Assembly (NCBI GenBank): GCA_963662275.1 | Contig: OY759316.1 | Span: forward strand, 1,792,001-1,856,000 | Direction of reading: 5' to 3' | Length of the DNA stretch: 64,000 bases | Source: Candidatus Cloacimonadales bacterium | Lineage (GTDB): Bacteria > Cloacimonadota > Cloacimonadia > Cloacimonadales > DAONDQ01 | Part shown: piece by piece, positions 4,732 through 42,596 of the stretch | Numbering within the stretch: the stretch's first letter is position 1 | Layout of the letters: each line of letters begins with the position of its first letter | The notes under the pieces: generated by a model | What the model saw: only the letters and a program-made list of their open reading frames with translations | What the model was told of the DNA's origin: nothing | Database searches by the model: none | Made by a program: the position numbers and the translations under genes

Positions 4732-5505
4732 ATGAACATCGCCTTCATCAACGAAATGAAAAAAGTCATAGAAGCCAACACCCCTGCCTGGCTGCTCACC
4801 GTCACAGCTTCTGAAGGCTCCACACCCGGCAAACCGGGTATTAAGATGATCTTAAGAGCTGATGGCACATTCATCGGCACCATCGGTGGCGGTAATATCG
4901 AAAAGATAGCCATGCAGCGTGTTTTGGAAGAAAAGCCGACTTTCCCCCAGAAATGGAATTACGACCTCTCTGGAGAGGAGCTTCTGCTTCCTACAGGCAT
5001 GATTTGTGGCGGTTCACAGGAGATATTTGTGGAACCTCTCTTTGCAGCACAATCCCTCTATATCCTCGGCGGTGGACATTGCGGTATCGCCCTTTCCGAA
5101 CTGGCTGCGAAATGCGGATTCCATGTCACGGTCATCGACGATAGGGAAGAGTGGGCTGCCAAAGAAAAGCATCCCTACGCTGCCAGTGTCGTCTGTATCG
5201 ATTACGAGAGGGCAGGAGATATGGTGCAGGATGGAAGCTATGTCGTCATCATGACTCATGGGCATAAGCACGACGGCATGGTCTTACGCCAATTCCTAAG
5301 GCGTGAAATGAAGTATGTCGGCATGATCGGCAGCAAAACAAAGGTTGCAGCCACCTATGCGAAGATCATGGAAGAATGCTACACCGAAGCTGAACTTGCC
5401 AAAGTCTATGCACCAATAGGCTATCCAATAGGATCTCAAACTCCAGAGGAAATAGCAGTATCTGTTATGGCACAGTTGATAGCAGTCAAATACGGAAAAT
5501 TATAA
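4732..5505 (+). CDS. xdhC: XdhC/CoxI family xanthine dehydrogenase accessory protein
   Basis: GSTPGKPG..GTIGGG, GMICGG, LYILGGGH, VIMTHGH, YVGMIGS, APIGYPIGSQTPEEIAVS motifs. Confidence 0.88.
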   Translation: MNIAFINEMKKVIEANTPAWLLTVTASEGSTPGKPGIKMILRADGTFIGTIGGGNIEKIAMQRVLEEKPTFPQKWNYDLSGEELLLPTGMICGGSQEIFVEPLFAAQSLYILGGGHCGIALSELAAKCGFHVTVIDDREEWAAKEKHPYAASVVCIDYERAGDMVQDGSYVVIMTHGHKHDGMVLRQFLRREMKYVGMIGSKTKVAATYAKIMEECYTEAELAKVYAPIGYPIGSQTPEEIAVSVMAQLIAVKYGKL

Positions 5506-7933: not shown

Positions 7934-9579
7934 CAGGCATCCCCCCGTAATTTTCTTAACAATTAGTTTAGAAGCGTTTATAGTAACAGTCAAACGTTTT
8001 GCCGACTTTGAAAATCTGTTTAACATCACTGGTTGGTCAAAACTCCTAAACAGAAACTAGTGCAATTTGTAATTTACGGTAAACAGAAGAGTTGTGTTTT
8101 CACGGTAAAAGCAAAAAGCAGGTATTTTAATAAAACTTATAAAATTATGTGAGAAAATAAGATAACTATATAGAATGTCCATAATAAAACTGTACAAAAA
8201 AAGTGTCTCCGATCTTTTGTTCAAGCACTAAACCAAACCTAAGAAGGAGACACCCATGATTAATAAGAAGCAAATCAAAACCAGAGAAACCTTGCAAGTA
8301 AAATTGTTACAATTTCTGAATAATTTTAGAGAAACGCAATCTCTACCTGTGTATAAGTTCATACAGGATATCTGCTTAGGGATACTGAAAAGTAAATCTG
8401 TAATTATGCTCCAAATAGCGAAACAGCTAAATGAACCAATCACGGTTAAAAAGCTCTGCGAACGTTTCACCCGACATTTGAATAAGAAGCCCTTAGGAGA
8501 TAAGCTGCAAGCGGAAATAATTAGGCATCAGTGCCAGGGTTTTGATGATGAGACAGGCATCATAGTTGATGAAAGTGATATCGTAAAAACCAAAGCCAAA
8601 AAGATGGAGGGATTGCAGAAGGTGCGTGATGGCAGCACCGGCAGTCATGATCAGCAGGGCTATGCATTGCTGAATATAATTGCCTATCAGGCAGGCAGTA
8701 CAGGCTATGAGATAAAACCCATCAGTTCAGACCTGATAGCCCGAAACATGGAACTGGATAGCGTCTCTCAGATCATGGAAGACCGGCTAGTGGGGATTAT
8801 TCTTGCAAGTGGTAACCGTGGAGTAACTATTTTCGACCGTGGCTTTGACAACCGAAATCTATTCAGCTTTCTGCATGAACATGGACTAAGCTATATCATC
8901 AGATCAACAGGTGAAAGAAGTCTTATCATGGATGGCTGCGAACAGAACTTCATGGCAGTGGCAAAGACAGTGAAACTCGATCATACATTCAATCTGCAAG
9001 AATCAGGACAACAGATAAAATGTGGTTTAACGCGGGTGAAGCTGCGTTTGAATCCTTACCCTGTAAAATACCCTGATACTACAGATGCCTGGCTTATTGT
9101 TGCACAGTTCAGTCCCGATGCTAGTGGCAGACAGGGATATTTCTATTTCATCTGCGACTTTCCGACACAACCTTATCTGACGGAAAATGCTATCATGGAG
9201 AAGGTTTTGCGGATGTATCGCATACGCTGGAAAATCGAAGAGGTCCATCGCCATATCAAGCAGGAATATGGTTGGGAAAAGATACAACTGAAATCATATA
9301 CCCGTCTGAAAAACATGAACCAGCTGCTTCTGCTAGCTATGTGCTACCTGTATTCTCTGAAAAAGTATGCTGGCGTATTTTTAGATGCCTTCCCAAATCT
9401 TATGAAATACTCAAATAAACAGTGGAAGCAGATATATGACTTTGTGTATTATCGTCTGTCAATGCTGATAGAGATGTGTTTTGCCACCGTGACAAGGTAC
9501 AGGCTCAATCCTTTTGCAGGAAAATGGCTGGATAATCAGCAGCTAAAAATACCTGGTTTGAAAAACGGGGGGATGTGAG
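7934..9579 (+). mobile_element. IS4-family insertion sequence, 1646 bp
   Basis: Inverted ends caggcatccccccgt / acggggggatgtgag; 13-bp direct repeat gtaatattatatt at 7921-7933 and 9580-9592. Confidence 0.9.
8256..9578 (+). CDS. IS4-family DDE transposase
   Basis: VDESD, FDRGFD and Y-R-I-R-W-K-I-E-E-V-H-R-H-I-K (YREK) motifs. Confidence 0.88.
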   Translation: MINKKQIKTRETLQVKLLQFLNNFRETQSLPVYKFIQDICLGILKSKSVIMLQIAKQLNEPITVKKLCERFTRHLNKKPLGDKLQAEIIRHQCQGFDDETGIIVDESDIVKTKAKKMEGLQKVRDGSTGSHDQQGYALLNIIAYQAGSTGYEIKPISSDLIARNMELDSVSQIMEDRLVGIILASGNRGVTIFDRGFDNRNLFSFLHEHGLSYIIRSTGERSLIMDGCEQNFMAVAKTVKLDHTFNLQESGQQIKCGLTRVKLRLNPYPVKYPDTTDAWLIVAQFSPDASGRQGYFYFICDFPTQPYLTENAIMEKVLRMYRIRWKIEEVHRHIKQEYGWEKIQLKSYTRLKNMNQLLLLAMCYLYSLKKYAGVFLDAFPNLMKYSNKQWKQIYDFVYYRLSMLIEMCFATVTRYRLNPFAGKWLDNQQLKIPGLKNGGM

Positions 9580-9655
9580 GTAATATTATATTAGATTGAC
9601 AAATTTAGGAACATATAAATTAATCTGCGAATAGTTTAGTGTTTAAGGAGCATCT

Positions 9656-10783
9656 ATGTCTAAGCAGCGTTATCCTTTTATGGGGATTATGGGTCAGGAA
9701 GAACTAAGCCTGGCACTGATCCTGAACCTCGTGAATCCACAAATTGGAGGTGTACTGATTCGTGGTACGAAAGGCACTGGAAAAAGCACAGCCGTTTATG
9801 GATTGCCCCAAATCACACCTGCGATACAAGTAAATCAATCGTGTCAGTACAATTGTTCACCGGATGAGCCTGAGAATTGGTGCGCCTGGTGCAAAGAGCA
9901 GCAAACTCATACTGCGATTCAGAAAGAGATTGAAGTGGTGAATCTACCGATGAATGTATCGGAAGAGAATCTATTTGGTAAGATCGATATCGAAAAGCTT
10001 CTGAAGACAGCAGAGAAAGCTTTTGTGCCGGGTCTCATCGCTAAAGCGCATAGACAGATCCTGTATATCGATGAAGTGAACCTAATCCCTGATCATATCA
10101 CGGACAGCTTGCTGGATGTGGTCGCTTCGGGTGTGAATATTGTTGAACGGGAAGGTTTTTCAGTTATCCATCCCGCCAAGTTCCTTCTCATTGGAACAAT
10201 GAATAGCGAAGAAGGTGAACTTAGACCGCAGATTCTTGATCGTTTTCCGCTTTCTGTCACCATTCTCACGGCAAGTAATATGGAGGACAGGGAAGAGATC
10301 ATTCGGCGTAATTTTGCCTATGAAGAAAATCCGGACAGTTTTGCTGAAAGCTTCAAAAATGTGAATGAACTGATGAAAAATACAATCCTGGGAGCCAGGA
10401 AATTATTCCCTCAGACTTCAATTTCCCAGGAATTAGTGCAAAAGATACTTCAATTCTGTATCCAGTTTGCGATCGATGGACATAGGTCGGAAATCGTCAT
10501 CGTGAAGACAGCCAGGACATATGCTGCGTTGGAAATGAAACAGAAGGTCGAGATCAAGCATATTAAGATGGCAATGAAGCTGACGCTTCTCCATCGTACC
10601 CGGGAAGGCGGGCTCAAGAAAGCGGTTACTTGGGACGATATTGATAAATGGTTTGCAGAAGTGAAAGAGGAAAGTGAAACCAATCCTGCGTTCTCACTGG
10701 AGTACACACCCGAGAATATTTCCTTGTTGAAGGGAGGCTTTGTTTCCCCATCAAAAAAATCAGAGAAAGCCTCAACAATCTAA
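9656..10783 (+). CDS. ChlI/BchI-like AAA+ chelatase subunit (0-frame product)
   Basis: YPF..I.GQE, GGVLIRGTKGTGKST (Walker A), ILYIDEVN (Walker B), GTMNSEEGELRPQILDRF. Confidence 0.9.
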   Translation: MSKQRYPFMGIMGQEELSLALILNLVNPQIGGVLIRGTKGTGKSTAVYGLPQITPAIQVNQSCQYNCSPDEPENWCAWCKEQQTHTAIQKEIEVVNLPMNVSEENLFGKIDIEKLLKTAEKAFVPGLIAKAHRQILYIDEVNLIPDHITDSLLDVVASGVNIVEREGFSVIHPAKFLLIGTMNSEEGELRPQILDRFPLSVTILTASNMEDREEIIRRNFAYEENPDSFAESFKNVNELMKNTILGARKLFPQTSISQELVQKILQFCIQFAIDGHRSEIVIVKTARTYAALEMKQKVEIKHIKMAMKLTLLHRTREGGLKKAVTWDDIDKWFAEVKEESETNPAFSLEYTPENISLLKGGFVSPSKKSEKASTI

Positions 10784-10805
10784 GATTATTCTTAGGTGAC
10801 GAGGC
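10732..10805 (+). promoter_or_regulatory. Candidate programmed -1 ribosomal frameshift signal
   Basis: GGGAGG 10732-37; in-frame A_AAA_AAA 10753-59; hairpin gcctc..ctaaga-ttat-tcttag..gaggc 10769-10805. Confidence 0.7.
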
Positions 10806-12090
10806 AAGCGAAGGTTATGTCGAAAGGCGAAATCTGTTCATTATTATTCTGAAGCAGGTCCAGGAAAAAGAACTGACTGAAGTTGAGAAAAGACTTCTCA
10901 AGGAGTTCGATGCAATATGGCAGAACTATGAGAACGATCCTGTGACTATCATGACCTTGACCAGCATATATGCTCTCCTTTCTCATCCTGATTTAAAGAA
11001 TATAAGATTCGATCAAGATTTATTTAGTGAGGCTCTATCTCCTTTCAATCAAATATTCATGGAGCCAAAAAGCCTGAGTGAAGTTGTCAGTTTCATAAAG
11101 AAATTAGTGAAGAACAGGCACATTGAAGAAAACATGAAAACGATTACTAAAGGAGTTTCGAAGCACAGGAAGGATGAAAATTCTACGTTTAATGTGGATT
11201 TGAAAGATAATGAGTTGAAAAAGGTCGCCTTCAAAAGAAAGAAGATCACTTCTCTCAAAAACAGGGATACCGATTGTGCGACCGGATTGCCAATCATTAC
11301 CTGGACATCCATTAAAGCTGCTAATGAGAAACCGCATATCTACCAGACAGTCAAAGCAGCCGCGCTGGATGGGTCTTTTGTTTGTAATCCGTATCATATT
11401 CAAATCAGTAATCGGCACTTCCGTTATCCGGTCTTCCAACAGAAACAGAACTTCAATATGATGCTGGTACTGGATATCAGCAATTCTGTAAAATGGGTTC
11501 TGAAGTTCATGGCGAAGATCATCTCCATGCTGACGTCTGATGCAAGAGCTGCCGAAGATAAACTTGGGTTGATCATCTTCAATGATGACCGAGCGCAGGT
11601 CATGCATTATCCCACTACCAATATCAGGCATGTGATCGGTACTATCAACACCCTGGCTCCCAGTGGTAAAACACCTTTAGCTGATGGTCTGAAACTAGCC
11701 ATGCAGACCCTGGAGCATAGCCGGTTCCAGGTTACAGGGATGTCCAATGCCATTGTGCTGCTTTCCGATTGCTTTCCGGAACCTATAACCAATGAACATG
11801 AAGACCCCATGGATGAACCTGTATGCCAACAGATTCTGCATGTTTGCGATAAAATAAGAGACAACAAGTTTAAATTACTCGTTCTTAATCCGAGTTTGAG
11901 TGATCTTCCGCATTATGATCAGCAACTGGGTTTCAAATTAGGGAAAAAGGCTGCTGAACGTGCAGATGGTAACTTCCTTAACCTGGTAGGACATCCAAGC
12001 GGATCTTTTTTTGCCAAGGATGATGACTTTGTCTTACCGGATCAGATGCTGAAAGAGTTGATGAAGGAAGTGGGGGAGTTCAGGAATTAA
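10759..12090 (+). CDS. vWA-domain (ChlD-like) region, probably the -1 frame extension of the AAA+ ORF (about 811 aa fusion)
   Basis: Frame is open from 10678 with no ATG/GTG/TTG until 10942; MIDAS LDISNS, GKTPL, LLSD. Confidence 0.75.
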   Translation: MRESLNNLRLFLGDEASEGYVERRNLFIIILKQVQEKELTEVEKRLLKEFDAIWQNYENDPVTIMTLTSIYALLSHPDLKNIRFDQDLFSEALSPFNQIFMEPKSLSEVVSFIKKLVKNRHIEENMKTITKGVSKHRKDENSTFNVDLKDNELKKVAFKRKKITSLKNRDTDCATGLPIITWTSIKAANEKPHIYQTVKAAALDGSFVCNPYHIQISNRHFRYPVFQQKQNFNMMLVLDISNSVKWVLKFMAKIISMLTSDARAAEDKLGLIIFNDDRAQVMHYPTTNIRHVIGTINTLAPSGKTPLADGLKLAMQTLEHSRFQVTGMSNAIVLLSDCFPEPITNEHEDPMDEPVCQQILHVCDKIRDNKFKLLVLNPSLSDLPHYDQQLGFKLGKKAAERADGNFLNLVGHPSGSFFAKDDDFVLPDQMLKELMKEVGEFRN

Positions 12091-12468: not shown

Positions 12469-15396
12469 ATGAAAAGGACTATCGTTTTATTTTCAGTTCT
12501 TATAGCAATCTGCAGTTTGTTCGCAGGATCACTAAATGAAGGCTTTGGCTCTGTAGTTCCACCGCCTGCATGGCAAGTGATTAACGGTGGTGACTCTAAT
12601 ACCTGGATCAAGTATTCCGGTGTTCTGGCGAGAACAGGTGGCACATGTGCCTATATCTATTATTCTGAAACAGCTCATGATGATTGGTTAATAACTCCCC
12701 AGCTCTTACCATCGATTGGTGATGCAACCTTTAGCTTCTGGGCTTTTAACGGACCGGGTTACACGGATCGTTTTAACGTGAAGCTTTCTACTGCGTCAAA
12801 TAATGTAGCTGACTTCACGGTTTCACTGGCAACGAATGTCGGACCACCCAATACATGGACACTATACACATATGATCTTTCTGCCTATGTTTGGCAAACG
12901 GTGTTTATTGCTTTCCAGGCAATCTCGACGAATCAGAGTTTTTTAATGATAGATGACGTTTCCGGGCCTCTCATGCCTTTTGTCGATGGCTTTGAGACCA
13001 ATAATTTCAATTACTTCCAATGGAACAATAGTTCTGCCAGCCCTTGGACTGTTCAAAACGTAGAGCATTACTATGGCAGCTATTCAGCCAAATCCGGTAC
13101 TATAGATGCCGATTCCAGCACAAGCCTGATCCTGTCTCAAGTGATCAGTGCCCCCGGGAATATATACTTCTCAGCTAAGGTCAGCTCTCTATCAGGCTCT
13201 GATTTCCTGAAATTCTATGTTGATGATGTGCTGAAAGGTTCCTGGTCCGGGGAAACTGGCTGGTTTGAACAAGGTTACCTTGTTACAGCCGGCTCACACG
13301 TATTCAGGTGGACTTATAGTAAGAATGTTGCAGGTGTTGTCGGCAGTGATTGTGCATTGTTGGATAATATAGTACTGCCGCCAATCAGTTATGCAACAGA
13401 AGCAAATCCCGTTCAAATCACTACCCCCGCTCAACTGAACAACATACGCAATTACCTGGGTAGTCAGCATGCAAACAAGTTTTTTAAACTGATGAATAAT
13501 ATAGATTTAACAACTTATCTTGCCAGCGGTGGTGAAGGCTATACTACCTGGGGAACAGCCGGATGGTTACCGATAGGAACAAATGCAGCTCGTTTTTACG
13601 GTCATTTCAATGGAAATAGTAAATCTATTTCGGGGCTAAAGATTGACCGTCCTGCAAATACAGATATCGGCTTTTTTGGAAATGTGGCTGTAGGTGCTGT
13701 TATAGAAAATACAAGAGTGGCAACTGCTGCCGGAAGCTATGTAAAAGGCTGGCAGACAACCGGAATGCTGGTTGGCTATAATGACGGAACTATTACCAAT
13801 TGCTCTGCTGTAGGTAGTGTTTATGGACAGTCAGATGGGTGTGGCGTCTTAGTCGGTGCTGTAGGTGGTTCCGGCACAATCAACCGCTGCTTTTCCAAAG
13901 GGACTGCGATCGGTGCTGCCTATAGAGTTGGCGGTTTGGCTGGACAGAACTATGGAACGATCAGTAACTGCTATTCCAGAGCCACCGTTACTGGTCAACA
14001 TTACCTCGGCGGACTGGTGGGATACCAGGGTTCAGGTACCATAAATAATTCTTTTGCAACTGGTCTGATAACCGGAGGCAGCAATGGCGGATTGCTGGGT
14101 AATCTGATCGGAGGTACTATCGTCAATTCATACTGGGATGTCCAGACCACGGGACTTTCCTATTCTCAAGGTTCAGCCTCCTCTTATGGTAAGACCACTG
14201 CTCAAATGAAGATGCAATCCACATACCCCGGCTGGGACTTTTATGGAGAAACTGCGAATGGAACCAATGATTACTGGGGTATCTTCCCAACGGATTTTGA
14301 GGGTTATCCCTGTTTGATCTGGGACTGTCCCAATTATACTATGGCACCTCTTCAAAACTACCCTAACGATGGAAGTTTGATAAGAAAAACCCTAGCTTAC
14401 GTGGGTTGGGATGCCAATACCTTGGGTCAGGTCCCTTTTAGTTATATGATTTATATGATTCCCACTAATCCGGCACATTTGACAGAGACTGGTTATCCTC
14501 GTCAAATAACCTACTCCGCCCCTCATGGTTACTACGGCAACCCCTACAATCTTAATGAACATCCTGAGAATATTGTAAACTATGGTGAAACATGGTATTG
14601 GAAGGTGGTTGCCTACGATGCTTCCGGTGTAGCGTATTCCTCTCCGATACGCAGCTTCACTATAGAAAATGATCCCTTTGGAACAGAGAGCTTTGAATAT
14701 AGCTACTCTGACGGCTCCACAACCATACCCAACTGGGAACAGGGCTGGTGGGACGGACCTCTTGAATCAGCAACGTTATGGAAAGCCAATTCTACCCACA
14801 CTGACTTTAACCGTGCTCCCCGTACCGGTGCATTCAATTTAACCCTTTTTAATGCCGGTTTTCCCCTTGTCAGTACTGTTCTTGCCCGTATTTACCCCCT
14901 GGTAGCAGGCAGGACGTATGAGATTGAAGTCTATGCACGGCAGGACACTCCAAATCCTGCGGATGCCGGCATCAGATTCTACACTTTAAATTCACCAATG
15001 ACAGAGCTTAGTCCAATGTACGGTCTAACAAATGGTAGTTACCAGCGTTTTACCTGCACTTTTACTGCCGCGCAAACACACGAGAATGTTCTATATTATG
15101 TAGTGGAAATGAACGACAATGCAAACTATGTTAGTATCGATGATATCACTGTTCGGGAAGTGCTGACACTGGAGACACCGCAGCTTACGATCTCTAAATC
15201 AGGCACGGATGTAACGCTAACTTGGGATGATATTACCTATGCCTCTGAATATCGCGTCTATACTTCAGATAATCCAGCCACCTGGACTTCCTTCATAACA
15301 GTCGCATCACCCACGCATACCTATACTTTCGATTCTGTAGGTGTAGGAAAGAAGTTCTACAGGGTGGTTGCTTCAACAATTGTAAGAAGAGATTGA
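12469..15396 (+). CDS. Large secreted protein with cleaved-adhesin (choice-of-anchor J-like) and GLUG-motif domains
   Basis: Signal peptide; HDDWLITPQL; repeated GGLVG.N.GTI.NCYS units. Confidence 0.8.
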   Translation: MKRTIVLFSVLIAICSLFAGSLNEGFGSVVPPPAWQVINGGDSNTWIKYSGVLARTGGTCAYIYYSETAHDDWLITPQLLPSIGDATFSFWAFNGPGYTDRFNVKLSTASNNVADFTVSLATNVGPPNTWTLYTYDLSAYVWQTVFIAFQAISTNQSFLMIDDVSGPLMPFVDGFETNNFNYFQWNNSSASPWTVQNVEHYYGSYSAKSGTIDADSSTSLILSQVISAPGNIYFSAKVSSLSGSDFLKFYVDDVLKGSWSGETGWFEQGYLVTAGSHVFRWTYSKNVAGVVGSDCALLDNIVLPPISYATEANPVQITTPAQLNNIRNYLGSQHANKFFKLMNNIDLTTYLASGGEGYTTWGTAGWLPIGTNAARFYGHFNGNSKSISGLKIDRPANTDIGFFGNVAVGAVIENTRVATAAGSYVKGWQTTGMLVGYNDGTITNCSAVGSVYGQSDGCGVLVGAVGGSGTINRCFSKGTAIGAAYRVGGLAGQNYGTISNCYSRATVTGQHYLGGLVGYQGSGTINNSFATGLITGGSNGGLLGNLIGGTIVNSYWDVQTTGLSYSQGSASSYGKTTAQMKMQSTYPGWDFYGETANGTNDYWGIFPTDFEGYPCLIWDCPNYTMAPLQNYPNDGSLIRKTLAYVGWDANTLGQVPFSYMIYMIPTNPAHLTETGYPRQITYSAPHGYYGNPYNLNEHPENIVNYGETWYWKVVAYDASGVAYSSPIRSFTIENDPFGTESFEYSYSDGSTTIPNWEQGWWDGPLESATLWKANSTHTDFNRAPRTGAFNLTLFNAGFPLVSTVLARIYPLVAGRTYEIEVYARQDTPNPADAGIRFYTLNSPMTELSPMYGLTNGSYQRFTCTFTAAQTHENVLYYVVEMNDNANYVSIDDITVREVLTLETPQLTISKSGTDVTLTWDDITYASEYRVYTSDNPATWTSFITVASPTHTYTFDSVGVGKKFYRVVASTIVRRD

Positions 15397-15859: not shown

Positions 15860-18800
15860 ATGAAGAAGACTATCTTTTTACTTGTACTTCTAATGGCAAT
15901 GGGCGTTTTATTCGCTACAACCCTCAATGAGAGTTTTGAATCTCCAACTTTCCCACCTCCCGGTTGGGGAATCGTTAATGGTGGAGATGGTAGAACATGG
16001 CAAAGGACATATATGGAAAACACCGGCCATACAGGATATGGGTGTGCGACCATTGAAACAAGCAATATTTATGTGCATGATGACTGGTTAATAACTCCGC
16101 AGCTTACACCAATGTCAGGTTCTTCTACTTTCAGTTTCTGGGCAAGAACTCTCTTCATTAATAGTTATTACCCTGCCGAGCAATTCAATGTGAAATTATC
16201 CATTTCAACGAACGACATTTCTGCCATGACTTATGTCCTTGCCTCAAACGTGACTACCAGTACGTCATATGCGCAATACTCCTATGATCTATCTCCTTAT
16301 ATCGGGCAAAATGTACATGTGGCAATTCAAGCTTTATATGCAGACAGGTCAACTCTAATGGTGGATGACATAATAGGTCCTCAGATGATGGGTTTCGAGG
16401 GATTTGAAACAGGTAATTTCAACTCTTTTGCGTGGAATAATGCTTCAGCAAGCCCATGGACATTGCAGAATATTAACAGGTATTCGGGCATATATGCAGC
16501 GAAATCAGGTGTTATCAGTGATGGCGCGAGTACAAGTCTCAGTATTACACAGTATATCAGTGAAATAGGACATATCTACTTTTTACAGATGGTCAGTTCG
16601 GAAAGCGGTTCTGATTTCCTGAAGTTTTATATTGATGATGTGGAACAAGGTTCCTGGTCAGGAGAAGGACTTTGGCAGGCACAAAGCTATCTTGTCTATA
16701 TGGGAACACATACTTTCAGATGGACATATTCCAAGAATGGTTCAGGTTCAAGCGGAAGTGATTGTGCCTGGATCGATCATATCGTTTTTCCTCCATCTCT
16801 TGTCGGGACTGCTGCGGATCCGTATCAAATTACGACTGCAGCAGAATTGAACAACATCCGCAATTACCTTGGCAGTTCCTTTTCAAATAAACGTTTTAAA
16901 TTAATGAATGATATTGATCTCACTGCTTATCTTGCTCCCGGCGGTGCAGGCTATTCTGCCTGGGGAACAAACGGATGGCTGTCGATTGGTAATGGATCCA
17001 GTCTTTTCTACGGGAGCTTTGACGGGAATAATCATACTATCTCCAACCTTAGTACTCATTATTATGGTACATGTCATGGTCTATTCGGTGCTAACGCTGT
17101 TGGAAGTACGATTCAAAATCTTACGATGAGCAATACATGCTATATTCTCGGTGATGGTGAAACAGGTTCCATTATAGGGCGTAACAACGGAGTTGTCCTA
17201 AACTGCAGATCGGCTGCAACGATCAATATTGGCAATGCTGATAAGGGCGGTGGGATCGTTGGTAACAATTATGGTGTGATTGGCAACTGCGGTTTTTCTG
17301 GAACCATAACCAGGTCAGGAAGCGGAGTTTCATGCAATAAGATCGGCGGCATTGCCGGTAACAGTGAAACTGGCGCAATTATTAATAACAGCTATTCTAC
17401 CGGAAGCATCTCAGGTAATACCTACACTGCCGGTTTGGTTGGTTGGAATAACGGAACAATCAATAACTGCTATACGACAGGTACCGTAACGGGTGCTGCC
17501 AACGCTGATGGGGGACTGGTGGGTCAAAACCAGGGTGTCATCAATAATTCATATTCAAGGGCAACAGTCTCCGGTGCCAGCTATGTTGGCGGCTTGGTCG
17601 GATATAATTCTGGCAGTACGATCACAAATTGCTTTTCAACAGGTGCCGTTACCGGTAGTATCAAGGGTGGACTTTGCGGACAAACCGGAGCCACGATCAA
17701 TAGTTCTTACTGGGATACACAGACCAGCGGTTTGGCTACATCCTATGGGGGGACGGGCAAGACGACAGCAGAGATGAAAACTCAATCCAATTTTTCAGGC
17801 TGGGATTTTGCAGGGGAAACAGCCAATGGAACGAATGATTACTGGTATATGACATCCACAGATAATGCAGGCTATCCCTTCTTGTGCTGGGAAAAGGCAA
17901 GCGAAGTCAGAGCTCCACTTCTTGTATATCCAGGCGATGCTGCTTCAGGTATATCACAGAATGGATTTAATTTCTCCTGGACACCTTTCCCGGGAGGACA
18001 GACTCCTGACCACTACAATCTTTACTTCATAAAAGGAAATCCTTCTCATATCTTTGAGGCTGGTTACACTGACCAGCATTCCTATCTCAATTTACACGCA
18101 ATCAGCTACAATCCTGTAAGCAGTGGAGTCATTAGCCTTCATTATGGAGAGGTTTGGTATTGGACTGTGATTGCCTATACGTCAAATGGGGAAGCATTTC
18201 CGACACCGACGACACGTTCATTTACCATCGAAAACGAAGTTGTTTTCACCGATGGTTTTGAAACGGGTAATACCCAGGGAAGCACCACGATAAGCAACTG
18301 GACTCAAGCATTGGGTTCAGGTACAAACTACTGGACGGTTAATTCCACAAACACAGATTTTAATAGAACCCCTAAAACAGGTTCATTTAATGTGACATTG
18401 TTCTTCCCCGGAAATGCCTGGATGTTTCGATCCGTTGTCTTGAAAGGAGGAGTGCCTTATCGTGTTGAACTATATGCCAGGCAGGATGGAACGGTTTCGT
18501 CCAATGCCAGTGTCGGAATCTCATACGGAACGGCAGCCACGATAGCTGGAATGACAAATGTGTTAGTGACCCAGACCGGGTTGGTGAATGGAAGTTATCA
18601 GCTTATCACGGCAACATTCGTACCACAATCAAACGGAACTTATTATATTGGTATCAATGGTATCATTGCTACTCCTTCCAACTATATCAGCATGGATGAT
18701 ATCACCCTGAAGCATACACCTCTGATCGCTCCTGTTGCAGTGACTCAGAACTTACCTGCTGATATGGCTATAAACCAGATCCTGCTTCCTACTATAAACT

Positions 18801-20581
18801 GGACATTCGCAGTTAGCGGAGGATTCCCATCCAGCTATAAAATTTATTGCCAGGCAAGTAATAGACCAATTACACCTACTGCTTTGGTTGCAACGGTAAC
18901 TTCACCTACATTTACTTTTACTACTTCATTGGAATACAACTCAACCTATTATTGGATGGTCATCGCTTCCAATGCATATGGAGATGCAACGGGCAATATG
19001 GTTCACTCTTTCACAACGATTCAAAATCCTGAACTACCTCAACCTCAGCCCAATGACCTTTCTGCAAGATCAATCAGCGGAACTGACTATGGAATTATCG
19101 GAACACCAATTGCACATACTATAACAGTCACTAATTACGGGTCAAGTTCACAGGACAGCTACACTGTACGTATTAAAAGTGTATCACCAGCCATGACGCT
19201 TGCCACCCTCAATGTCACGATACCTCTGGCTTCTGGGGAGACAACCTCCCATAGTATAACCTGGACTCCAACGAATGCAAGTCTTCATGTCAGTAAAATA
19301 TACGGGGAAGTGGTTTTGAATAGTGATAGCTTACTCGCTAATAATATTACTTCCAATATTCCGTTTGGCATCATTTCAGGGTCAGGAACAGATACAGATC
19401 CATATGGCATAAGTACGCCGGAAGCACTGAATGCAGTCCGGTATTTCCTGGGGGTTGCATATGCAGGTAAACATTTCAAATTGCTGAATGACATCGATTT
19501 GGCAGCATATCTCATCACTGGGAATGGTTTTGCAGCCTGGGGTTCCTCGGGATGGCTGCCGATTGGGTCGGGTGCAGAACGTTTCTATGGCAGTTTTGAT
19601 GGAAACAACAGAACCATCTCAGGATTTGTGTTAGATCGTGCTTGGACTGACAATTGCGGATTGTTCGGTTATACTGAATTTGGTTCAAGAATTGAAAGCA
19701 CAAAACTTGTAGGCCACCCGGACAGATGGTGTAACGCGGCTAATTCGTTTGGAATGCTTGTAGGTGGAAATAACGGAACAATTAGTAATTGTTCTGCTCA
19801 ATTCAGCAGAATTGTTTCTCAATCCTGGAGCGGGGGATTGGTAGGTACTAACAATGGTACTATTAGTAAATGCTTCACTTCCGGCAATGTAGAGTCATAT
19901 TGGGAATTATGGGCATCTTCCATTGGCGGATTGGTAGGAATAAATTATGGAAATATCGGTAATTGTTATTCCAGGGCGAGTGTGAAAGCATACATGTATA
20001 TGGGTGGATTGGTCGGAATTCAGTCTGGAACAATCACGAATTGTTATGCCACAGGTGCCATAGACCATATTCTTGGCGATAATTCAAGAGGCGGTATCCT
20101 CGGCGCAGCAGGTGGTACTGTTGTTAATTCTTACTGGGATAAACAAACAACTGGTATACTAACGTCCTTTGGTTCGGATAGTAGTTTTGGAAAGTCAACA
20201 GCCATGATGAAGATGCAGGGAACTTATGCAGGTTGGGATTTCACAAATACCTGGTTTATTGATCCATCTGTGAATGATGGCTATCCGCAGCTTGCCTGGG
20301 CAGCAACATCCGCTCTTATGAGTATTCCAACGAATATCACGATTCAGAAGGATACTGTCCTCGGAGTCGTGACAATTACCTGGGATGACATGCATGCAGC
20401 CTGGTATGGTGTATACGCAGGCTCTTCTCCTTCAAACCTGACATATCTTGGCTGGACAGGCACGAATAGTATTACTGTTAATGCTGATAACCATGGATTC
20501 TTCAAGATCACATCCGGCTCTGGAACACCGACAGCACCAGCGCTGCTGCGTGGGAATTATGAATTAAGAATTAAGAATTAA
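15860..20581 (+). CDS. Large secreted adhesin-like protein with two GLUG regions and FN3/CARDB-like modules; paralog of 12469-15396
   Basis: Signal peptide, shared HDDWLITPQL and GLUG blocks, same upstream taggcagaaaa(a)ggaga leader. Confidence 0.8.
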   Translation: MKKTIFLLVLLMAMGVLFATTLNESFESPTFPPPGWGIVNGGDGRTWQRTYMENTGHTGYGCATIETSNIYVHDDWLITPQLTPMSGSSTFSFWARTLFINSYYPAEQFNVKLSISTNDISAMTYVLASNVTTSTSYAQYSYDLSPYIGQNVHVAIQALYADRSTLMVDDIIGPQMMGFEGFETGNFNSFAWNNASASPWTLQNINRYSGIYAAKSGVISDGASTSLSITQYISEIGHIYFLQMVSSESGSDFLKFYIDDVEQGSWSGEGLWQAQSYLVYMGTHTFRWTYSKNGSGSSGSDCAWIDHIVFPPSLVGTAADPYQITTAAELNNIRNYLGSSFSNKRFKLMNDIDLTAYLAPGGAGYSAWGTNGWLSIGNGSSLFYGSFDGNNHTISNLSTHYYGTCHGLFGANAVGSTIQNLTMSNTCYILGDGETGSIIGRNNGVVLNCRSAATINIGNADKGGGIVGNNYGVIGNCGFSGTITRSGSGVSCNKIGGIAGNSETGAIINNSYSTGSISGNTYTAGLVGWNNGTINNCYTTGTVTGAANADGGLVGQNQGVINNSYSRATVSGASYVGGLVGYNSGSTITNCFSTGAVTGSIKGGLCGQTGATINSSYWDTQTSGLATSYGGTGKTTAEMKTQSNFSGWDFAGETANGTNDYWYMTSTDNAGYPFLCWEKASEVRAPLLVYPGDAASGISQNGFNFSWTPFPGGQTPDHYNLYFIKGNPSHIFEAGYTDQHSYLNLHAISYNPVSSGVISLHYGEVWYWTVIAYTSNGEAFPTPTTRSFTIENEVVFTDGFETGNTQGSTTISNWTQALGSGTNYWTVNSTNTDFNRTPKTGSFNVTLFFPGNAWMFRSVVLKGGVPYRVELYARQDGTVSSNASVGISYGTAATIAGMTNVLVTQTGLVNGSYQLITATFVPQSNGTYYIGINGIIATPSNYISMDDITLKHTPLIAPVAVTQNLPADMAINQILLPTINWTFAVSGGFPSSYKIYCQASNRPITPTALVATVTSPTFTFTTSLEYNSTYYWMVIASNAYGDATGNMVHSFTTIQNPELPQPQPNDLSARSISGTDYGIIGTPIAHTITVTNYGSSSQDSYTVRIKSVSPAMTLATLNVTIPLASGETTSHSITWTPTNASLHVSKIYGEVVLNSDSLLANNITSNIPFGIISGSGTDTDPYGISTPEALNAVRYFLGVAYAGKHFKLLNDIDLAAYLITGNGFAAWGSSGWLPIGSGAERFYGSFDGNNRTISGFVLDRAWTDNCGLFGYTEFGSRIESTKLVGHPDRWCNAANSFGMLVGGNNGTISNCSAQFSRIVSQSWSGGLVGTNNGTISKCFTSGNVESYWELWASSIGGLVGINYGNIGNCYSRASVKAYMYMGGLVGIQSGTITNCYATGAIDHILGDNSRGGILGAAGGTVVNSYWDKQTTGILTSFGSDSSFGKSTAMMKMQGTYAGWDFTNTWFIDPSVNDGYPQLAWAATSALMSIPTNITIQKDTVLGVVTITWDDMHAAWYGVYAGSSPSNLTYLGWTGTNSITVNADNHGFFKITSGSGTPTAPALLRGNYELRIKN

Positions 20582-24564: not shown

Positions 24565-24951
24565 ATGGGTAAATTCATTATTTTAGCGTTCTTGGTTATA
24601 ATTACAGTTGGCTGTTCTAAAACAAGCGGTGATGTGAGTAAATATGCAGATGCTACAGAAGCTATCCAAGAGTATGCGCAAAAGCATATGACAGCCGATT
24701 GGTTTTCCGTTTTGGAGCCAGTTGGTCAGTTTGAAGTTACTGGTGTGGAAATAAAAAAAGCTAAGGTTTTAGAGGATGATGATCATTCTGCTGAATTGAC
24801 TGTTATTTTACAAGGTTATTATACTCCTATGGCAAGTACGGATAAAGATGAAACAAAGCAGTTCACACTCAAGAAGAAGTTTAATGTTACCCGTGTGACC
24901 TACGGCAAGGAAGCGAAATATAGTGTGAAGCTTATGCGAAATAATAATTAA
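24565..24951 (+). CDS. Lipoprotein, paralog of 6965-7330
   Basis: Lipobox TVGC; shared DWF...EVT.V...SA..TV.L.G...K.FNVT pattern. Confidence 0.8.
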   Translation: MGKFIILAFLVIITVGCSKTSGDVSKYADATEAIQEYAQKHMTADWFSVLEPVGQFEVTGVEIKKAKVLEDDDHSAELTVILQGYYTPMASTDKDETKQFTLKKKFNVTRVTYGKEAKYSVKLMRNNN

Positions 24952-34270: not shown

Positions 34271-35158
34271 ATGGATAAGGATCTGTTATTAAATGAACCC
34301 TTAACTGCAAAATTAGATCGCTTTCACTTGCGAACCAGGATGATTGTGGAAGGTTTTATGGTTGGGTTGCATAAGTCTCCCTATCATGGATTCAGCGTTG
34401 AGTTTGCAGATCATCGGCAATACATACCAGGGGATGCTATCCGTAATGTGGATTGGAAAGTATACGCTAAAACTAATCGTTGGTATGTAAAACGCTATGA
34501 AGAAGAAACAAATGTACGTACGTTCATTATTCTTGATCATAGCAAATCCATGCAGTATGGTTCAGGAAACATCACAAAACTTGAATATGCTAAGCAATTA
34601 GCCTCAGCTTTGGCTTATCTGGTTATTCAACAGCAGGATGCTGCAGGTCTGATAACTTATACCGATAAAATCACCAACTATTTCCCACCTAAGGCATATC
34701 GAACTTATGTCAGTATTTTGCTGGAAAAGATGTATCATCTTGAACCTCAGGAACAAACCCATACACTTACTGTTTTACACAATCTGGCGGAACAGATTCG
34801 AAAACGAAGCCTGATCATTCTCATCTCTGATATGATTGATGATCCTGATGCAATACTATCCGGTTTGAATCATTTCCGTTATTCTCATCATGAAGTCATC
34901 CTTTTTCATATCCAAGATCCACAGGAAATTCAATTCCAATTCAAAGGTGAAACTGAATTTATCGACCATGAGACAGGTAGTAAGGTGACAGTCATGCCCT
35001 GGCAAATTCGAAATGATTATAAACAGGCATATGATGCTTTTTCCAAATATATGAAAGTGAAATGTCATCAATCTAAAATTGAATATAACGAACTCACTAC
35101 TTCAACACCTATCGAAGACAGCCTTTTACAATACCTGATCAAACGCAGCCGTATCTAA
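34271..35158 (+). CDS. DUF58 domain protein
   Basis: GLHKSPYHGFSVEFADHRQY.PGD...DWKVYA...YEEETN. Confidence 0.9.
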   Translation: MDKDLLLNEPLTAKLDRFHLRTRMIVEGFMVGLHKSPYHGFSVEFADHRQYIPGDAIRNVDWKVYAKTNRWYVKRYEEETNVRTFIILDHSKSMQYGSGNITKLEYAKQLASALAYLVIQQQDAAGLITYTDKITNYFPPKAYRTYVSILLEKMYHLEPQEQTHTLTVLHNLAEQIRKRSLIILISDMIDDPDAILSGLNHFRYSHHEVILFHIQDPQEIQFQFKGETEFIDHETGSKVTVMPWQIRNDYKQAYDAFSKYMKVKCHQSKIEYNELTTSTPIEDSLLQYLIKRSRI

Positions 35159-39031: not shown

Positions 39032-42000
39032 ATGAGCTATCCTGGTATCAGAGATAATTATACAAATGGTTCTGTGGGTGATTTTCTCAAAGAAGTAATT
39101 ACTTCCAGTTCTGATATTTCTATTGTATCAGCGTACTTCACTATTTATGCCTATAATCAATTAAAAGACAATTTGAATGGAATTGATCATTTACGTTTTC
39201 TCTTCGGTGAACCTACATTTATTAAGTCCATGGATCCTGATAAAGTAAATGCCAAAGACTTTAAAATAGAAGATGATAAATTAGTTATTCCAATTGAAAG
39301 TAAGCTCACACAAAAGAATATAGCAAGAGAATGTTACGATTGGATGCAGGAAAAGACAGAAATCCGTTCTATGGTAAAACCGAATTTCCTTCATGGGAAA
39401 TTGTATCATGTAAAACAGGAAAGCGGCATTGAGAAAGCCATTGCAGGGAGTTCAAATTTTACAGTGAACGGTCTTGGTTTGGGAAACAGCAAGAATATTG
39501 AATTGAATCTGATCATAGATAGTGATAGAGAAAGACAGGAATTGAAAGAATGGTTTGATTCCATATGGAATGATGATACAGGTCTGGTTGAAGATGTGAA
39601 GGAACAAGTCCTTAAATACCTAGAACAACTTTACATTGAGAATGATCCAGAGTTTATCTACTTCAAAACACTCTTCCATATCTTTGAAGATTATTTGAAT
39701 GAACAGAAACAAGGTGGCTTACTTAACGAAAAGACTGGCTTCTACGATAGTGAAATATGGAATATGCTCTATGATTTCCAGAAAGACGGAGTCAAAGGCG
39801 CAATCAATAAGATATTGAAACATAATGGCTGTATCATTGCTGATAGTGTAGGTTTGGGTAAGACTTTTGAAGCTTTGGCAGTCATCAAGTATTTTGAGAT
39901 ATTGAATGCCAGGGTACTGGTATTATGTCCCAAAAAGCTGACAGGGAACTGGACGATCTATCAGGCACGTCAAAATCATCTGTTAAATCCATTCAAGAAA
40001 GACAGATTTGATTACACAGTTTTATATCATACAGATATGGGACGTGTTTCAGGTAAATCAGATGCGAATGGTATTGAACTCCAGAATTTCAATTGGAGTG
40101 CTTATGATCTCGTCGTCATAGATGAGTCACATAATTTCCGTGGTAATCCAATGGAAAAATTGAAAGATGATGGCAATATCAAAATGAACAGGGCTAAGTG
40201 GCTGATGGAAATGGTTTTGAAATCCGGTTCAAAGACTAAAGTGCTCATGCTTTCTGCCACACCTGTTAATAATACACTACGTGACTTAAGAAATCAAGTC
40301 GCATTCATAACTGAAGGGAAAGACGATGCTCTGTTTGAGAACTGTAAGATTAAAAGCATTGATCTTACCTTGAAAAATGCTCAGAGAAACTTCACTTTAT
40401 GGGCAGAACAAAAAGGCAAACCCAAAGGCATGAAAGAACTTCTAGAAAGGTTAGATTCATCATTTTTCAAACTACTTGATGAACTCACAATTGCTCGTTC
40501 ACGGAAACATATTGTAAGCTATTACAAAACAGAAGCAATTGGTAAATTTCCTTTCAGAGAGAAACCGCATTCAGTTTACCCGGATATTGATTTGGATAAA
40601 CGATTCCCCTCTTACGATACTATCAATAAACAGATAGATCAGTATACACTCTCTGTGTTCAATCCTTCTGAATATGTAAAGCCATTTATGAGGAAAAAAT
40701 ATGAAGATATGGTAAGAGGTCAGGTTCTTAATTTTACACAAAAAGCTCGTGAACGGTTCCTCATTGGTATGATGAGGATTAATTATTTGAAACGTCTGGA
40801 AAGTTCAATTGAATCATTTGAGATATCACTCGATAGAACTATAATCAAGATAGAAACTCTTATTGATAAAATTGATAGATTCCAAAAGAGTACACTCAAA
40901 AATCAGGAAGAGACCTTGGAAGACTTAATACCTACCGATGATGAATTGGGAGAGGATATTGAAGAAATGGAAGAATGGCAGGTTGGTAAAAAATTAAGGT
41001 TTGATCTTGCCGATTTGAATCTGGATGGATGGCTTGTAGATCTCAAAAAAGACAAAGAAGCTTTAGTTAGTTTATTGAATAATGCCAAGGCTGTAACTCC
41101 TACTCGAGACGCCAAACTTAAAGAACTAAGAGAATTAATCCTTCAAAAAGTAAATCATCCCATTAATGATAATAATAAGAAGGTAATCGTATTTACTGCT
41201 TTCGCTGATACAGCAAAATATCTATATGATAACCTGAAAGAATGGATTAGAACAGACTTACATCTTAATTCTGCATTGATTTGTGGTGACTATACTCAGA
41301 CTACTCTCGGTAGAAACGACTATGATAATATATTGGTGAATTTCTCCCCAATATCAAAGAATAGAGCCAAGTTGAATATTGCAAATCAAACTGGCGAAAT
41401 TGATATACTTATTGCCACAGATTGTATCAGTGAAGGACAGAACCTACAGGATTGTGATTATCTAATCAATTACGATATACATTGGAATCCTGTTCGTATA
41501 ATACAGCGTTTTGGACGTATTGACAGGTTGGGTAGTAAGAACCAAACGATACAACTGGTTAACTTCTGGCCTACAAAAGACCTGGATCTCTATATCAATT
41601 TAAAAGAACGTGTAGAAGCTCGTATGGCTCTTGCAGATATGACTGCGACTGGTGAAGATAATATCCTGAATACAGAACAAATAGAAGAACTCATTTCAGA
41701 AGATTTGAAGTATCGTAATCAGCAATTAAAGAAACTGAAAGACGTTGTTCTCGATCTTGAAGATACAGATGTAACAATATCTCTTACTGACTTTACACTT
41801 GATGATTTCCGAATTGAGCTAACTAATTTTCTTGAGAATAACAGAAAAAGGCTGAATGATTCTCCAATGGGTCTGTATGCTATTGTTCCCGCTCCGGGTG
41901 GAGATTACTCTAGTTTAGATGCGGGGCAGTATTATACATCAATTGAAAAAGACATTATCAAACCGGGTGTTATCTATTGTTTAGCACAGAAAGGTGAATG

Positions 42001-42367
42001 TGATGGTAATGAAGAAGTAAATCCATTGAATCCATATTTCCTTATTTATATTCGAGATGACGGAACAGTGCGTTATAACTATACCAATGCCAAGCAGATT
42101 CTTGAAATATACCGTTTATTATGCCAGGGACGAAAGACCTATTATGAAAAGCTCTGCCAGTTGTTCAATGATGAGACAAATCATGGTGAGAAGATGGATA
42201 AGTATTCAGAATTGTTACAAAAAGCTGTTAATGCCATTGTCCAGATCTTCAAGAAAAAAGGCAGCGAAAAGCTTACTACTGATAGAAGTGCTGTATTAAT
42301 TCCCAAGACTAAGCAAGTAAATGAAATGAAAGATTTTGAACTGATAACTTGGTTAGTTGTAAAGTAA
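39032..42367 (+). CDS. PLD-nuclease-domain SNF2-like helicase (restriction/defence-associated)
   Basis: LHGKLY...GSSNFT (PLD), ADSVGLGKT, DESH, SATP, SEGQNLQ, QRFGRIDR. Confidence 0.85.
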   Translation: MSYPGIRDNYTNGSVGDFLKEVITSSSDISIVSAYFTIYAYNQLKDNLNGIDHLRFLFGEPTFIKSMDPDKVNAKDFKIEDDKLVIPIESKLTQKNIARECYDWMQEKTEIRSMVKPNFLHGKLYHVKQESGIEKAIAGSSNFTVNGLGLGNSKNIELNLIIDSDRERQELKEWFDSIWNDDTGLVEDVKEQVLKYLEQLYIENDPEFIYFKTLFHIFEDYLNEQKQGGLLNEKTGFYDSEIWNMLYDFQKDGVKGAINKILKHNGCIIADSVGLGKTFEALAVIKYFEILNARVLVLCPKKLTGNWTIYQARQNHLLNPFKKDRFDYTVLYHTDMGRVSGKSDANGIELQNFNWSAYDLVVIDESHNFRGNPMEKLKDDGNIKMNRAKWLMEMVLKSGSKTKVLMLSATPVNNTLRDLRNQVAFITEGKDDALFENCKIKSIDLTLKNAQRNFTLWAEQKGKPKGMKELLERLDSSFFKLLDELTIARSRKHIVSYYKTEAIGKFPFREKPHSVYPDIDLDKRFPSYDTINKQIDQYTLSVFNPSEYVKPFMRKKYEDMVRGQVLNFTQKARERFLIGMMRINYLKRLESSIESFEISLDRTIIKIETLIDKIDRFQKSTLKNQEETLEDLIPTDDELGEDIEEMEEWQVGKKLRFDLADLNLDGWLVDLKKDKEALVSLLNNAKAVTPTRDAKLKELRELILQKVNHPINDNNKKVIVFTAFADTAKYLYDNLKEWIRTDLHLNSALICGDYTQTTLGRNDYDNILVNFSPISKNRAKLNIANQTGEIDILIATDCISEGQNLQDCDYLINYDIHWNPVRIIQRFGRIDRLGSKNQTIQLVNFWPTKDLDLYINLKERVEARMALADMTATGEDNILNTEQIEELISEDLKYRNQQLKKLKDVVLDLEDTDVTISLTDFTLDDFRIELTNFLENNRKRLNDSPMGLYAIVPAPGGDYSSLDAGQYYTSIEKDIIKPGVIYCLAQKGECDGNEEVNPLNPYFLIYIRDDGTVRYNYTNAKQILEIYRLLCQGRKTYYEKLCQLFNDETNHGEKMDKYSELLQKAVNAIVQIFKKKGSEKLTTDRSAVLIPKTKQVNEMKDFELITWLVVK

Positions 42368-42596
42368 GACGTCGTTCTACTGTCTTATCTCCCTCCCATT
42401 TGTAAAGGGAGGGGCTAGGGGAGAGCTAGTTCTGATGCGTAACATAAGATTGTATCTTGTTTTCCCCGACGGTTTGTAACTTCGGGGTCTTTTAAGAGTT
42501 GTCGAGTAACAAACCCAACAACAAAACAGCTTACAAAGCTATGTTACAAATCTTTATAAATGCTAAAAAGGTAAAAGTAAAAATTGAGGTAACCTA

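Follow-up and report, generated by a model that had tools for sequence, protein, structure and literature searches.

A chlD-like gene of Cloacimonadota probably read by dnaX-style -1 ribosomal frameshifting at a conserved A_AAA_AAA heptamer

Introduction

Chelatase genes interrupted by a -1 change of frame are a described phenomenon. A cluster of 23 magnesium-chelatase genes from six genera has been reported to carry a -1 frameshift, and in E. coli reporters runs of 11, 9 and 7 A's gave 63%, 40% and 10% frameshifting (Antonov et al. 2013 NAR, PMC3711429). Frameshifted chlD (fs-chlD) genes occur in all major phyla, usually with a slippery site rich in A and T and a structure downstream of it (Kuznetsov et al. 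2022, PMC9227772). Two of their hosts, Spirochaeta thermophila and Brevefilum fermentans, carry fs-chlD without cobN/chlH and without both pathways, and the function of the complex there is unclear (PMC9227772). Here we analyse such a locus, at positions 9656-12090, in a stretch of 64,000 nucleotides (nt) from a Candidatus Cloacimonadales bacterium (GenBank assembly GCA_963662275.1, contig OY759316.1, positions 1,792,001 to 1,856,000, forward strand), hereafter 'the window', in which a ChlI-like AAA+ ATPase is followed at -1 by a frame that encodes a vWA domain.

The phylum Cloacimonadota is not mentioned in the available portions of PMC3711429 or of PMC9227772 and its supplement, and a search for literature on chelatase frameshifting, cobN or cobalamin biosynthesis in Cloacimonadota yielded nothing relevant among the items retrieved, part of which were represented by titles and abstract openings. 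The phenomenon is already published and reporter-tested in other genera; Cloacimonadota are a new phylum with a compact cassette. An earlier note on this DNA, made from the sequence alone, had referred to published frameshifted chlD-like genes and had read the locus as one chelatase-like gene with a -1 frameshift cassette, and the literature it referred to is real (PMC3711429, PMC9227772).

Results and discussion

A ChlI-like ATPase and a start-less frame at -1

We consider it likely that the locus is an fs-chlD gene with dnaX-style -1 programmed ribosomal frameshifting at A_AAA_AAA, which would yield subunits of 375 and 811 amino acids (aa), the longer one ChlD-like. Its features, with Shine-Dalgarno abbreviated to SD and open reading frame to ORF, are as follows.

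9645..9650, + strand: Shine-Dalgarno sequence AAGGAG of the AAA+ gene, read directly, 5 nt 5' of the ATG
9656..10783, + strand: 0-frame ORF from ATG 9656 to TAA 10783, ChlI-like AAA+ ATPase of 375 aa (the short product)
10732..10737, + strand: internal SD-like GGGAGG (core GGAGG 10733-37), 15 nt 5' of the heptamer, candidate upstream stimulator
10753..10759, + strand: slippery heptamer A_AAA_AAA, phase tcA AAA AAA, codons for Ser366, Lys367 and Lys368
10759..12090, + strand: 443 codons in the -1 frame, counted from the heptamer's last A and encoding a linker of ~230 aa and then vWA
10769..10805, + strand: two-part stem-loop after a 9-nt spacer from the heptamer, outer stem GCCUC/GAGGC, inner stem UCUAAGA/UCUUAGG, enclosing the 0-frame stop
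10781..10783, + strand: 0-frame stop TAA, 7 codons 3' of Lys368 and inside the hairpin
10942..10944, + strand: GTG, first canonical start codon of the -1 frame and the gene callers' start for a 382-aa 'VWA protein' (P0002)
11455..11889, + strand: vWA (integrin I-like) domain, -1 frame residues 233-377 (Pfam VWA_2 9.1e-12, VWA 3.4e-7)
Junction peptide of the predicted trans-frame product: ...SPSKKIRESLNN

The 375-aa ORF contains the invariant Walker A (GTKGTGKST) and Walker B (ILYIDE) motifs and matches the Pfam families AAA_5 (4.6e-11), Mg_chelatase (9.2e-10) and AAA_lid_2 (1.1e-9). Its best NCBIfam matches are TIGR02442 'putative cobaltochelatase' (411.3 bits, over positions 1-318 of 641) and TIGR02030 ChlI (351.8 bits), and its closest solved structure is that of Synechocystis ChlI (6l8d, E 2.3e-80). 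Between Walker A and Walker B lies a four-cysteine motif, C-x3-C-x8-C-x2-C (residues 63, 67, 76 and 79; window 9842-9895), which may form a metal-binding knuckle. All 15 AAA+ proteins aligned have it unchanged, distant relatives and the product of the ordinary chlI of locus L026 among them, and an in-frame fused homologue (P0181) keeps it; Synechocystis ChlI has no cysteines at the corresponding places.

The -1 frame stays open between 10678 and 12090. Its earliest ATG, GTG or TTG is the GTG at 10942, with 61 conserved codons between the heptamer and that codon. GTG 10942 is probably not the main N-terminus of the vWA protein; by reading of the local sequence, no SD-like box precedes either 10942 or the ATG at 10951. 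The ~230-aa linker is conserved and matched no Pfam family. The vWA part keeps the DxSxS, T and D residues, matches the vWA domain of BchD in structure 2x31 (E 1.4e-6) and aligns to positions 429-615 of TIGR02442 (71.4 bits). Pfam finds no AAA+ domain in the -1 frame part itself, and the ChlD-like architecture of AAA+, linker and vWA would thus arise only in the trans-frame protein, in which residues 1-368 are joined to 443 further residues (811 aa) and the junction passes from SPSKK in the 0 frame to IRESLNN in the -1 frame. For residues 1-225 of the linker, ESM Atlas returned a best score of 0.91 (159 shared features), to clusters that carry PF27098 'Rv0959_3rd', and one of 0.82 to PF26791 'AAPxQ'; both fall below the tool's reliability marks, and we keep them as leads only.

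These readings agree with the earlier note on the opening of the -1 frame at 10678 and the lack of a start codon before 10942, on the positions of GGGAGG, of the in-frame heptamer and of the hairpin 9 nt beyond it, and on the product sizes (375 and ~811 aa) and junction peptide. Its description of two subunits, ChlI-like AAA+ and ChlD-like AAA+-vWA, stands with one refinement: the AAA+-vWA protein would exist only as the trans-frame fusion, the downstream frame by itself having no AAA+ domain.

The proposed mechanism is as follows. Ribosomes would initiate at ATG 9656 and translate the ChlI-like ATPase as far as tcA AAA AAA (10753-59), where two tRNA-Lys would re-pair one base back; the stem-loop at 10769-10805, 9 nt downstream, probably promotes this slip, and the GGAGG 15 nt upstream may help. 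Those ribosomes that do not slip would terminate at TAA 10781-83, yielding the small subunit of 375 aa, and those that do would continue in the -1 frame to 12090 and produce an 811-aa protein composed of AAA+, the ~230-aa linker and a vWA domain with its metal-ion-dependent adhesion site (MIDAS), the architecture of ChlD. Both products share the AAA+ module and, if ChlI/ChlD and CobS/CobT are a guide, should together form a ring motor whose vWA domain would engage the client. The anatomy of the site, its conservation and the coding signature of the start-less frame are observed; the slip, its efficiency, the co-assembly and the client are inferred.

Comparison with described systems

The locus has the features of the published fs-chlD genes: a ChlI-like upstream ORF, a linker and vWA-only downstream frame at -1, and an A-rich slippery site in the overlap with an RNA structure downstream. 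It likewise has a signal conserved in orthologues, a coding frame without a start, and in-frame fused homologues elsewhere; the short product would correspond to the small subunit and the trans-frame product to the medium one, and among the published hosts, too, some lack cobN/chlH. The Cloacimonadota differ in that their A7 heptamer is fixed and accompanied by GGAGG and a hairpin, whereas longer runs (A9-A11) were tested there, and in having their own conserved ~230-aa linker outside any Pfam family.

The signal itself resembles that of E. coli dnaX, which produces tau and gamma: an upstream SD-like box, A_AAA_AAR read by tRNA-Lys, and a downstream stem-loop. There, as it would here, the choice between the 0 and -1 frames sets the proportion of two products with a common N-terminus, both of which join a single AAA+ complex. 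As in dnaX-type cassettes, the X_XXY_YYZ heptamer is in phase and a stable stem-loop follows a 9-nt spacer. In contrast to dnaX, the shifted product is the long one here and the short one there, and the protein families are unrelated beyond AAA+. In dnaX the SD-like box stands 10 nt from the heptamer. The comparison made in the earlier note with a dnaX-type signal of SD, heptamer and hairpin holds for the heptamer and the hairpin; the SD-like box, lying at 15 nt, is a candidate stimulator.

At the protein level, the clear ChlI homologue and BchD-type vWA resemble those of the magnesium chelatase ChlI/ChlD (BchI/BchD) and of cobaltochelatase's small and medium subunits. Unlike ChlI/ChlD, where the ChlD-type protein carries a diverged AAA+ module, the predicted long form has the very AAA+ of the short one, and unlike Synechocystis ChlI the AAA+ module has the four-cysteine motif. 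An AAA+ ATPase with a vWA/MIDAS partner is also the pattern of the MoxR-vWA pairs (RavA-ViaA, CoxD-CoxE, NorQ-NorD), which usually serve in the maturation of metal cofactors or their insertion into a client, but there the vWA protein is encoded by a separate gene rather than joined by recoding, and the AAA+ here is of the ChlI type. No MoxR family is among the Pfam or NCBIfam matches of the window protein, and a MoxR-vWA system was rejected on the grounds that the best family and structure matches of the AAA+ part are to ChlI.

Conservation of the junction across Cloacimonadota

Scanning a single genome for each GTDB species, we obtained 27 loci (denoted L with a number), 15 of them from Cloacimonadota, and the window together with these 15 makes up the 16 sequences compared below. 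At the junction, all 16 have the vWA frame at -1 with respect to the AAA+ frame. The heptamer is conserved in position and phase, as A_AAA_AAA in 14, A_AAA_AAG in one (L002) and C_AAA_AAA in one (L012), such that the canonical X_XXY_YYZ form is present in 15 of 16, L012 being the exception. The 0-frame stop stands exactly 7 codons past the second Lys codon in every sequence (TAA in eight, TGA in eight). Recurrence of the -1 relation, the in-phase heptamer, the stop position and the hairpin in 16 of 16 supports the frameshift-cassette reading of the earlier note. In five of the sequences (L003, L004, L010, L011, L015) a -1 frame stop two codons 5' of the heptamer confines the frame change to ~37 nt containing the heptamer.

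The -1 frame carries a coding signature from its first codon. The peptide IRESLAELSLLLG is conserved from there on, with R2, S4, L5, L8 and L10 invariant, and over the 52 codons past the 0-frame stop the 16 loci together have 0 stops in the -1 frame, whereas the two remaining frames have 48 and 78. At codon positions 1, 2 and 3, identity is 0.72, 0.79 and 0.51 between the heptamer and the first start codon, and 0.72, 0.81 and 0.47 in the downstream vWA part (15 sequences aligned, L003 being left out). The first ATG, GTG or TTG of the -1 frame falls at codon 28-78 in nine of the 16 and at codon 7-10 in seven, in differing places; the positions of start codons are thus not conserved, leaving a conserved coding stretch with no conserved means of initiation. 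Conservation of the -1 frame begins exactly at the heptamer, also in those loci that have an early TTG.

One orthologue departs from the others beyond its junction. In L003 (6094-6400) a normal junction is followed ~300 nt downstream, within the linker, by a second frame change, at which the -1 frame stops and the protein continues in +1; this second break is either an assembly indel or the mark of a decaying copy.

The candidate frameshift signal

The A7 run is by itself unremarkable: 28 matches occur on both strands of the window, against 43.5 +/- 8.5 expected from shuffles. A run no commoner than in shuffled sequence means little alone, and it is the phase, position and conservation of this one across 15 orthologous loci that exceed chance. 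The 30-nt window at 10751-10780 has a mean pairwise identity of 0.82, the 10th highest of all 30-nt windows, where the surrounding linker has 0.56-0.71 and the gene a mean of 0.69.

Upstream, the GGAGG core is present in 15 of the 16 sequences and is GGGGG in the other. Within the box, the leading Gly codon reads GGA in 15 sequences and GGG in one, against a background of 26% GGA (88 of 339 Gly codons in the ORFs analysed), with free variation at the third base of the Gly codon that follows. A fixed GGA beside a neighbouring Gly codon with a free third base points to constraint on a synonymous site, consistent with an SD-like role. That the host uses SD/anti-SD pairing, a prerequisite for an internal SD-like stimulator, is suggested by the AAGGAG in front of the AAA+ gene.

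Downstream, a segment of 42 nt holding the hairpin has a folding energy of -17.7 kcal/mol (z -6.1, 300 shuffles), with z -2.6 for a 106-nt fold over the hairpin region, and each of the 16 sequences forms a stable hairpin (energies from -12.4 to -23.4 kcal/mol, with z between -3.5 and -6.3). When a 14-pair structure is laid over the 16 sequences, 83.5% of its cells pair, compared with 33.5-50.9% when the 3' partners are slid, and 7 of 500 shuffles reach that paired percentage. No Rfam family was found on 10500-11000 at E<=1. The structure is conserved across the alignment, with modest support from covariation.

Alternative explanations

Several observations weigh against our reading. A7 gave only 10% frameshifting in the published E. 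coli reporter (PMC3711429), and the heptamer of L012 (C_AAA_AAA) is weakened. The SD-like box also encodes a conserved Lys-Gly-Gly, and its spacing of 15 nt exceeds that in dnaX. In the hairpin with its inner stem, 4 of 14 pairs show double changes, a count reached by 148 of 500 shuffles, and the covariation score is reached by 35 of 500; RNAalifold retains just a 6-bp outer stem with 0 double compensatory changes, its changes being one-sided (C to U and A to G, both yielding G-U pairs). Both hairpin arms are coding, and part of their conservation may therefore reflect protein constraint. The separate pieces did not reach the curated family cut-offs: the 375-aa ORF scores 351.8 bits against 466.95 for TIGR02030 (ChlI), the two pieces score 221 and 39 bits against 499.55 for TIGR02031 (ChlD), and, scored separately, they score 411.3 and 71.4 bits against 779.45 for TIGR02442. 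An AlphaFold2 model of the 443-aa part from 15 sequences has a mean predicted local distance difference test score (pLDDT) of 51.8, with the linker below 50, too poor for a fold search. Finally, seven of the 16 orthologues have a TTG 7-10 codons past the heptamer, and in L008 (~1997), L009 (~1862) and L014 (~6091) this -1 frame TTG overlaps the TGA stop of the AAA+ gene (TTGA), where termination and reinitiation could add a free vWA protein beside the frameshift product.

The main rival is transcriptional slippage, in which RNA polymerase would add one A on the A7 run and some of the mRNAs would become single-frame and encode the same two proteins. One extra A yields exactly the -1 frame, poly-A runs of more than 7 A's are known for transcriptional realignment (PMC3711429), and the A9-A10 runs at the junction of distant relatives have a plausible length for it. 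In Cloacimonadota, however, the run is just 7 A's and falls to 6 in L002 (AAAAAAG) and L012 (CAAAAAA), with L002 keeping A_AAA_AAG, a classic ribosomal heptamer. The conserved hairpin at 9 nt and the synonymously fixed GGAGG are moreover stimulators of the ribosomal kind, which a slipping polymerase does not need, and their conservation disfavours this explanation, which we regard as unlikely. Homopolymer runs are also error-prone in sequencing, and the earlier note had allowed for a true A8 that would restore a single ORF; together with this one may place a recently broken pseudogene, given the IS4-type transposase 78 nt upstream of the AAA+ gene and the further frame break inside the vWA part of L003. 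Either an error or decay would have to account for an identical -1 break at the heptamer in all 16 sequences, drawn from separate assemblies (an A8 error would have to recur in 15 independent ones), for a 0-frame stop conserved 7 codons downstream and for purifying selection on both halves, and no close in-frame version occurs among 1.84 billion representative sequences, where the 27 matches at E<=1e-30 are 197-442 aa long. We consider artefact or decay very improbable.

It might instead be supposed that these are two ordinary adjacent genes and that no trans-frame protein is made, the vWA protein starting at GTG 10942, at ATG 10951 or where ribosomes reinitiate close to the AAA+ stop. Databases and gene callers do treat the vWA ORFs as separate proteins of 357-445 aa, the early TTG codons and TTGA overlaps described above offer starts in some loci, and in the published reporter work initiation at the downstream gene was seen in some constructs (PMC3711429). 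Against this stand, in the window, the 61 codons that precede the first start codon and bear a full coding signature, a start-less stretch of 28-78 codons in nine of 16 sequences, the lack of an SD-like box before 10942 or 10951, and conservation of the -1 frame from the heptamer onwards even in the TTG-bearing loci; in-frame fused homologues of equal total length also exist. Independent initiation, which the earlier note had held open, would have to work from start codons that are not conserved across the 16 sequences, and separate genes are in our view a decidedly unlikely account. Ribosomal frameshifting at the heptamer thus seems to us the best reading of the locus, the alignment of homologues called for in the earlier note having returned the same -1 break in all 16 Cloacimonadota sequences.

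The wider family and fused homologues

Relatives of the vWA part found by a word index comprise 30 matches annotated as separate proteins, 28 of them at least 50% identical and 359-445 aa long, and all the named organisms among them are Cloacimonadota. Beyond the phylum, the junction was examined in eight distant split loci, and in all eight the vWA frame lies at -1 with a run of A7-A10 in the overlap, from which the -1 junction with an A-run is, by sequence, a family trait. These loci are:

L016, L019: Ignavibacteria
L017, L018: Bdellovibrionales
L020, L024: Zixibacteria
L021: uncultured
L023: Eisenbacteria

In L022 and L025 the upstream part is absent, and L026 has an ordinary chlI and a full chlD with a 4-nt overlap. 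A different arrangement is seen in L027 (3539-6498), where an 822-aa ORF contains two AAA+ modules (a ChlI-ChlD-like fusion) and is overlapped for ~200 nt by a -1 vWA ORF without a poly-A run; this may be a break of some other kind, or an error.

When the 1.84 billion representatives were searched exhaustively with a profile of the -1 frame part, 345 matches emerged at E<=1e-3. Proteins of fused length appear there only from E 7e-29 and match the vWA domain only, and no close in-frame fusion was found, all 27 matches at E<=1e-30 being at most 442 aa; intact fusions in close homologues, which the earlier note had named as evidence against frameshifting, are thus lacking from this set. Fused relatives are nevertheless readily found from the other side. 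The AAA+ part as query gave 3553 longer proteins at E<=0.001, and the 120 of these that were listed are 660-888 aa long, 42-49% identical, and contain AAA+ plus vWA domains. One of these 120 in-frame fused proteins (P0181, 810 aa) also aligns to the -1 frame profile over 290 columns (E 1e-41). The architecture of the 811-aa product is therefore that of a natural protein elsewhere, and single-frame in no close relative. A word-index search for longer, fused relatives of the vWA part gave no match among 6092 candidates, which is a limit of the index, since the AAA+ query and the profile comparison found them.

Genomic neighbourhood and the client

No CobN/ChlH domain was detected by Pfam in 37 of the 47 window ORFs of at least 120 aa (the others being the two ORFs of the locus itself, seven antisense shadow ORFs and a 128-aa ORF at 24565-24951), in keeping with the earlier note, nor in the 87 ORFs scanned from the flanks of related loci (19 large, 68 other). 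All-against-all clustering of ORFs from the 27 loci and the window gave no conserved partner gene. Candidate clients of the motor are a cobaltochelatase encoded elsewhere in the genome, or another protein. We advance with reserve, as a doubtful possibility, that the Cloacimonadota fs-chlD encodes an orphan ChlI/ChlD-type motor that has no CobN, is not a tetrapyrrole chelatase and acts on some other client, for example in metalloenzyme maturation.

Several neighbours carry signatures of mobility. The transposase upstream of the pair in the window is listed here with the other features of the neighbourhood.

8256-9578, + strand: DDE_Tnp_1 (IS4-type) transposase, ending 78 nt upstream of the AAA+ gene
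838-1413 and 4732-5505, + strand: MobA-like NTP transferase and XdhC, upstream of the pair
12469-15396 and 15860-20581: giant proteins with GLUG motifs
34271-35158, + strand: DUF58-type vWA gene (E 5.5e-51), the second vWA gene in the window and unrelated to the first
39032-46537, + strand: PLD-nuclease/SNF2 helicase of 1111 aa, then an Eco57I/MmeI-type methylase of 1177 aa with a TaqI-like specificity domain, likely a defence island
59589-61253 and 61603-63267, - strand: tandem 554-aa ORFs with the same FG-GAP and Por_Secre_tail domain coordinates, probably recent paralogues given their equal length and domain coordinates

Elsewhere, mobile-element genes flank the pair as a Mutator transposase (L009), DDE_3 (L010), DDE_5 (L015) and an integrase (L007). 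The only recurring upstream neighbour in the 15 orthologous loci is a small divergent ORF of the Phage_lysozyme family, present in four (L006 531-953, L008 227-691, L009 133-555 and L011 4324-4788, all on the - strand). Downstream, an ABC transporter occurs in L006, L007 and L008, with a radical-SAM/SPASM gene also in L006 and L008. In L009 (5418-9159), subunits of the xanthine-dehydrogenase family (FAD/2Fe-2S and molybdopterin-binding) lie downstream of the pair, past a transposase, and together with the MobA-like and XdhC genes of the window they form a pattern that recalls cofactor maturation of the CoxD/CoxE/CoxF type. We did not adopt a link to molybdenum-cofactor genes, as the pattern is found in only two of 16 loci and in each is parted from the pair by a transposase.

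Implications

If frameshifting operates as proposed, recoding would correct a gene model across a whole phylum of uncultured anaerobic-digester bacteria, in which annotation currently splits the locus into a 'magnesium chelatase' and a 'VWA domain protein' that is truncated at its N-terminus and given inconsistent starts. For the family, in which frameshifting has been measured, the clade would add a clean and compact cassette of SD-like box, A_AAA_AAA and hairpin, leaving knowledge of the mechanism unchanged, and it would bring further I/D-type motors that lack a large subunit in their vicinity. Were the motor indeed an orphan, its hallmarks would be the clade-specific ~230-aa linker and the invariant four-cysteine motif, the three-part signal would set the ratio of short to long product, and the frequent mobile-element neighbours would reflect a self-contained, transferable module.

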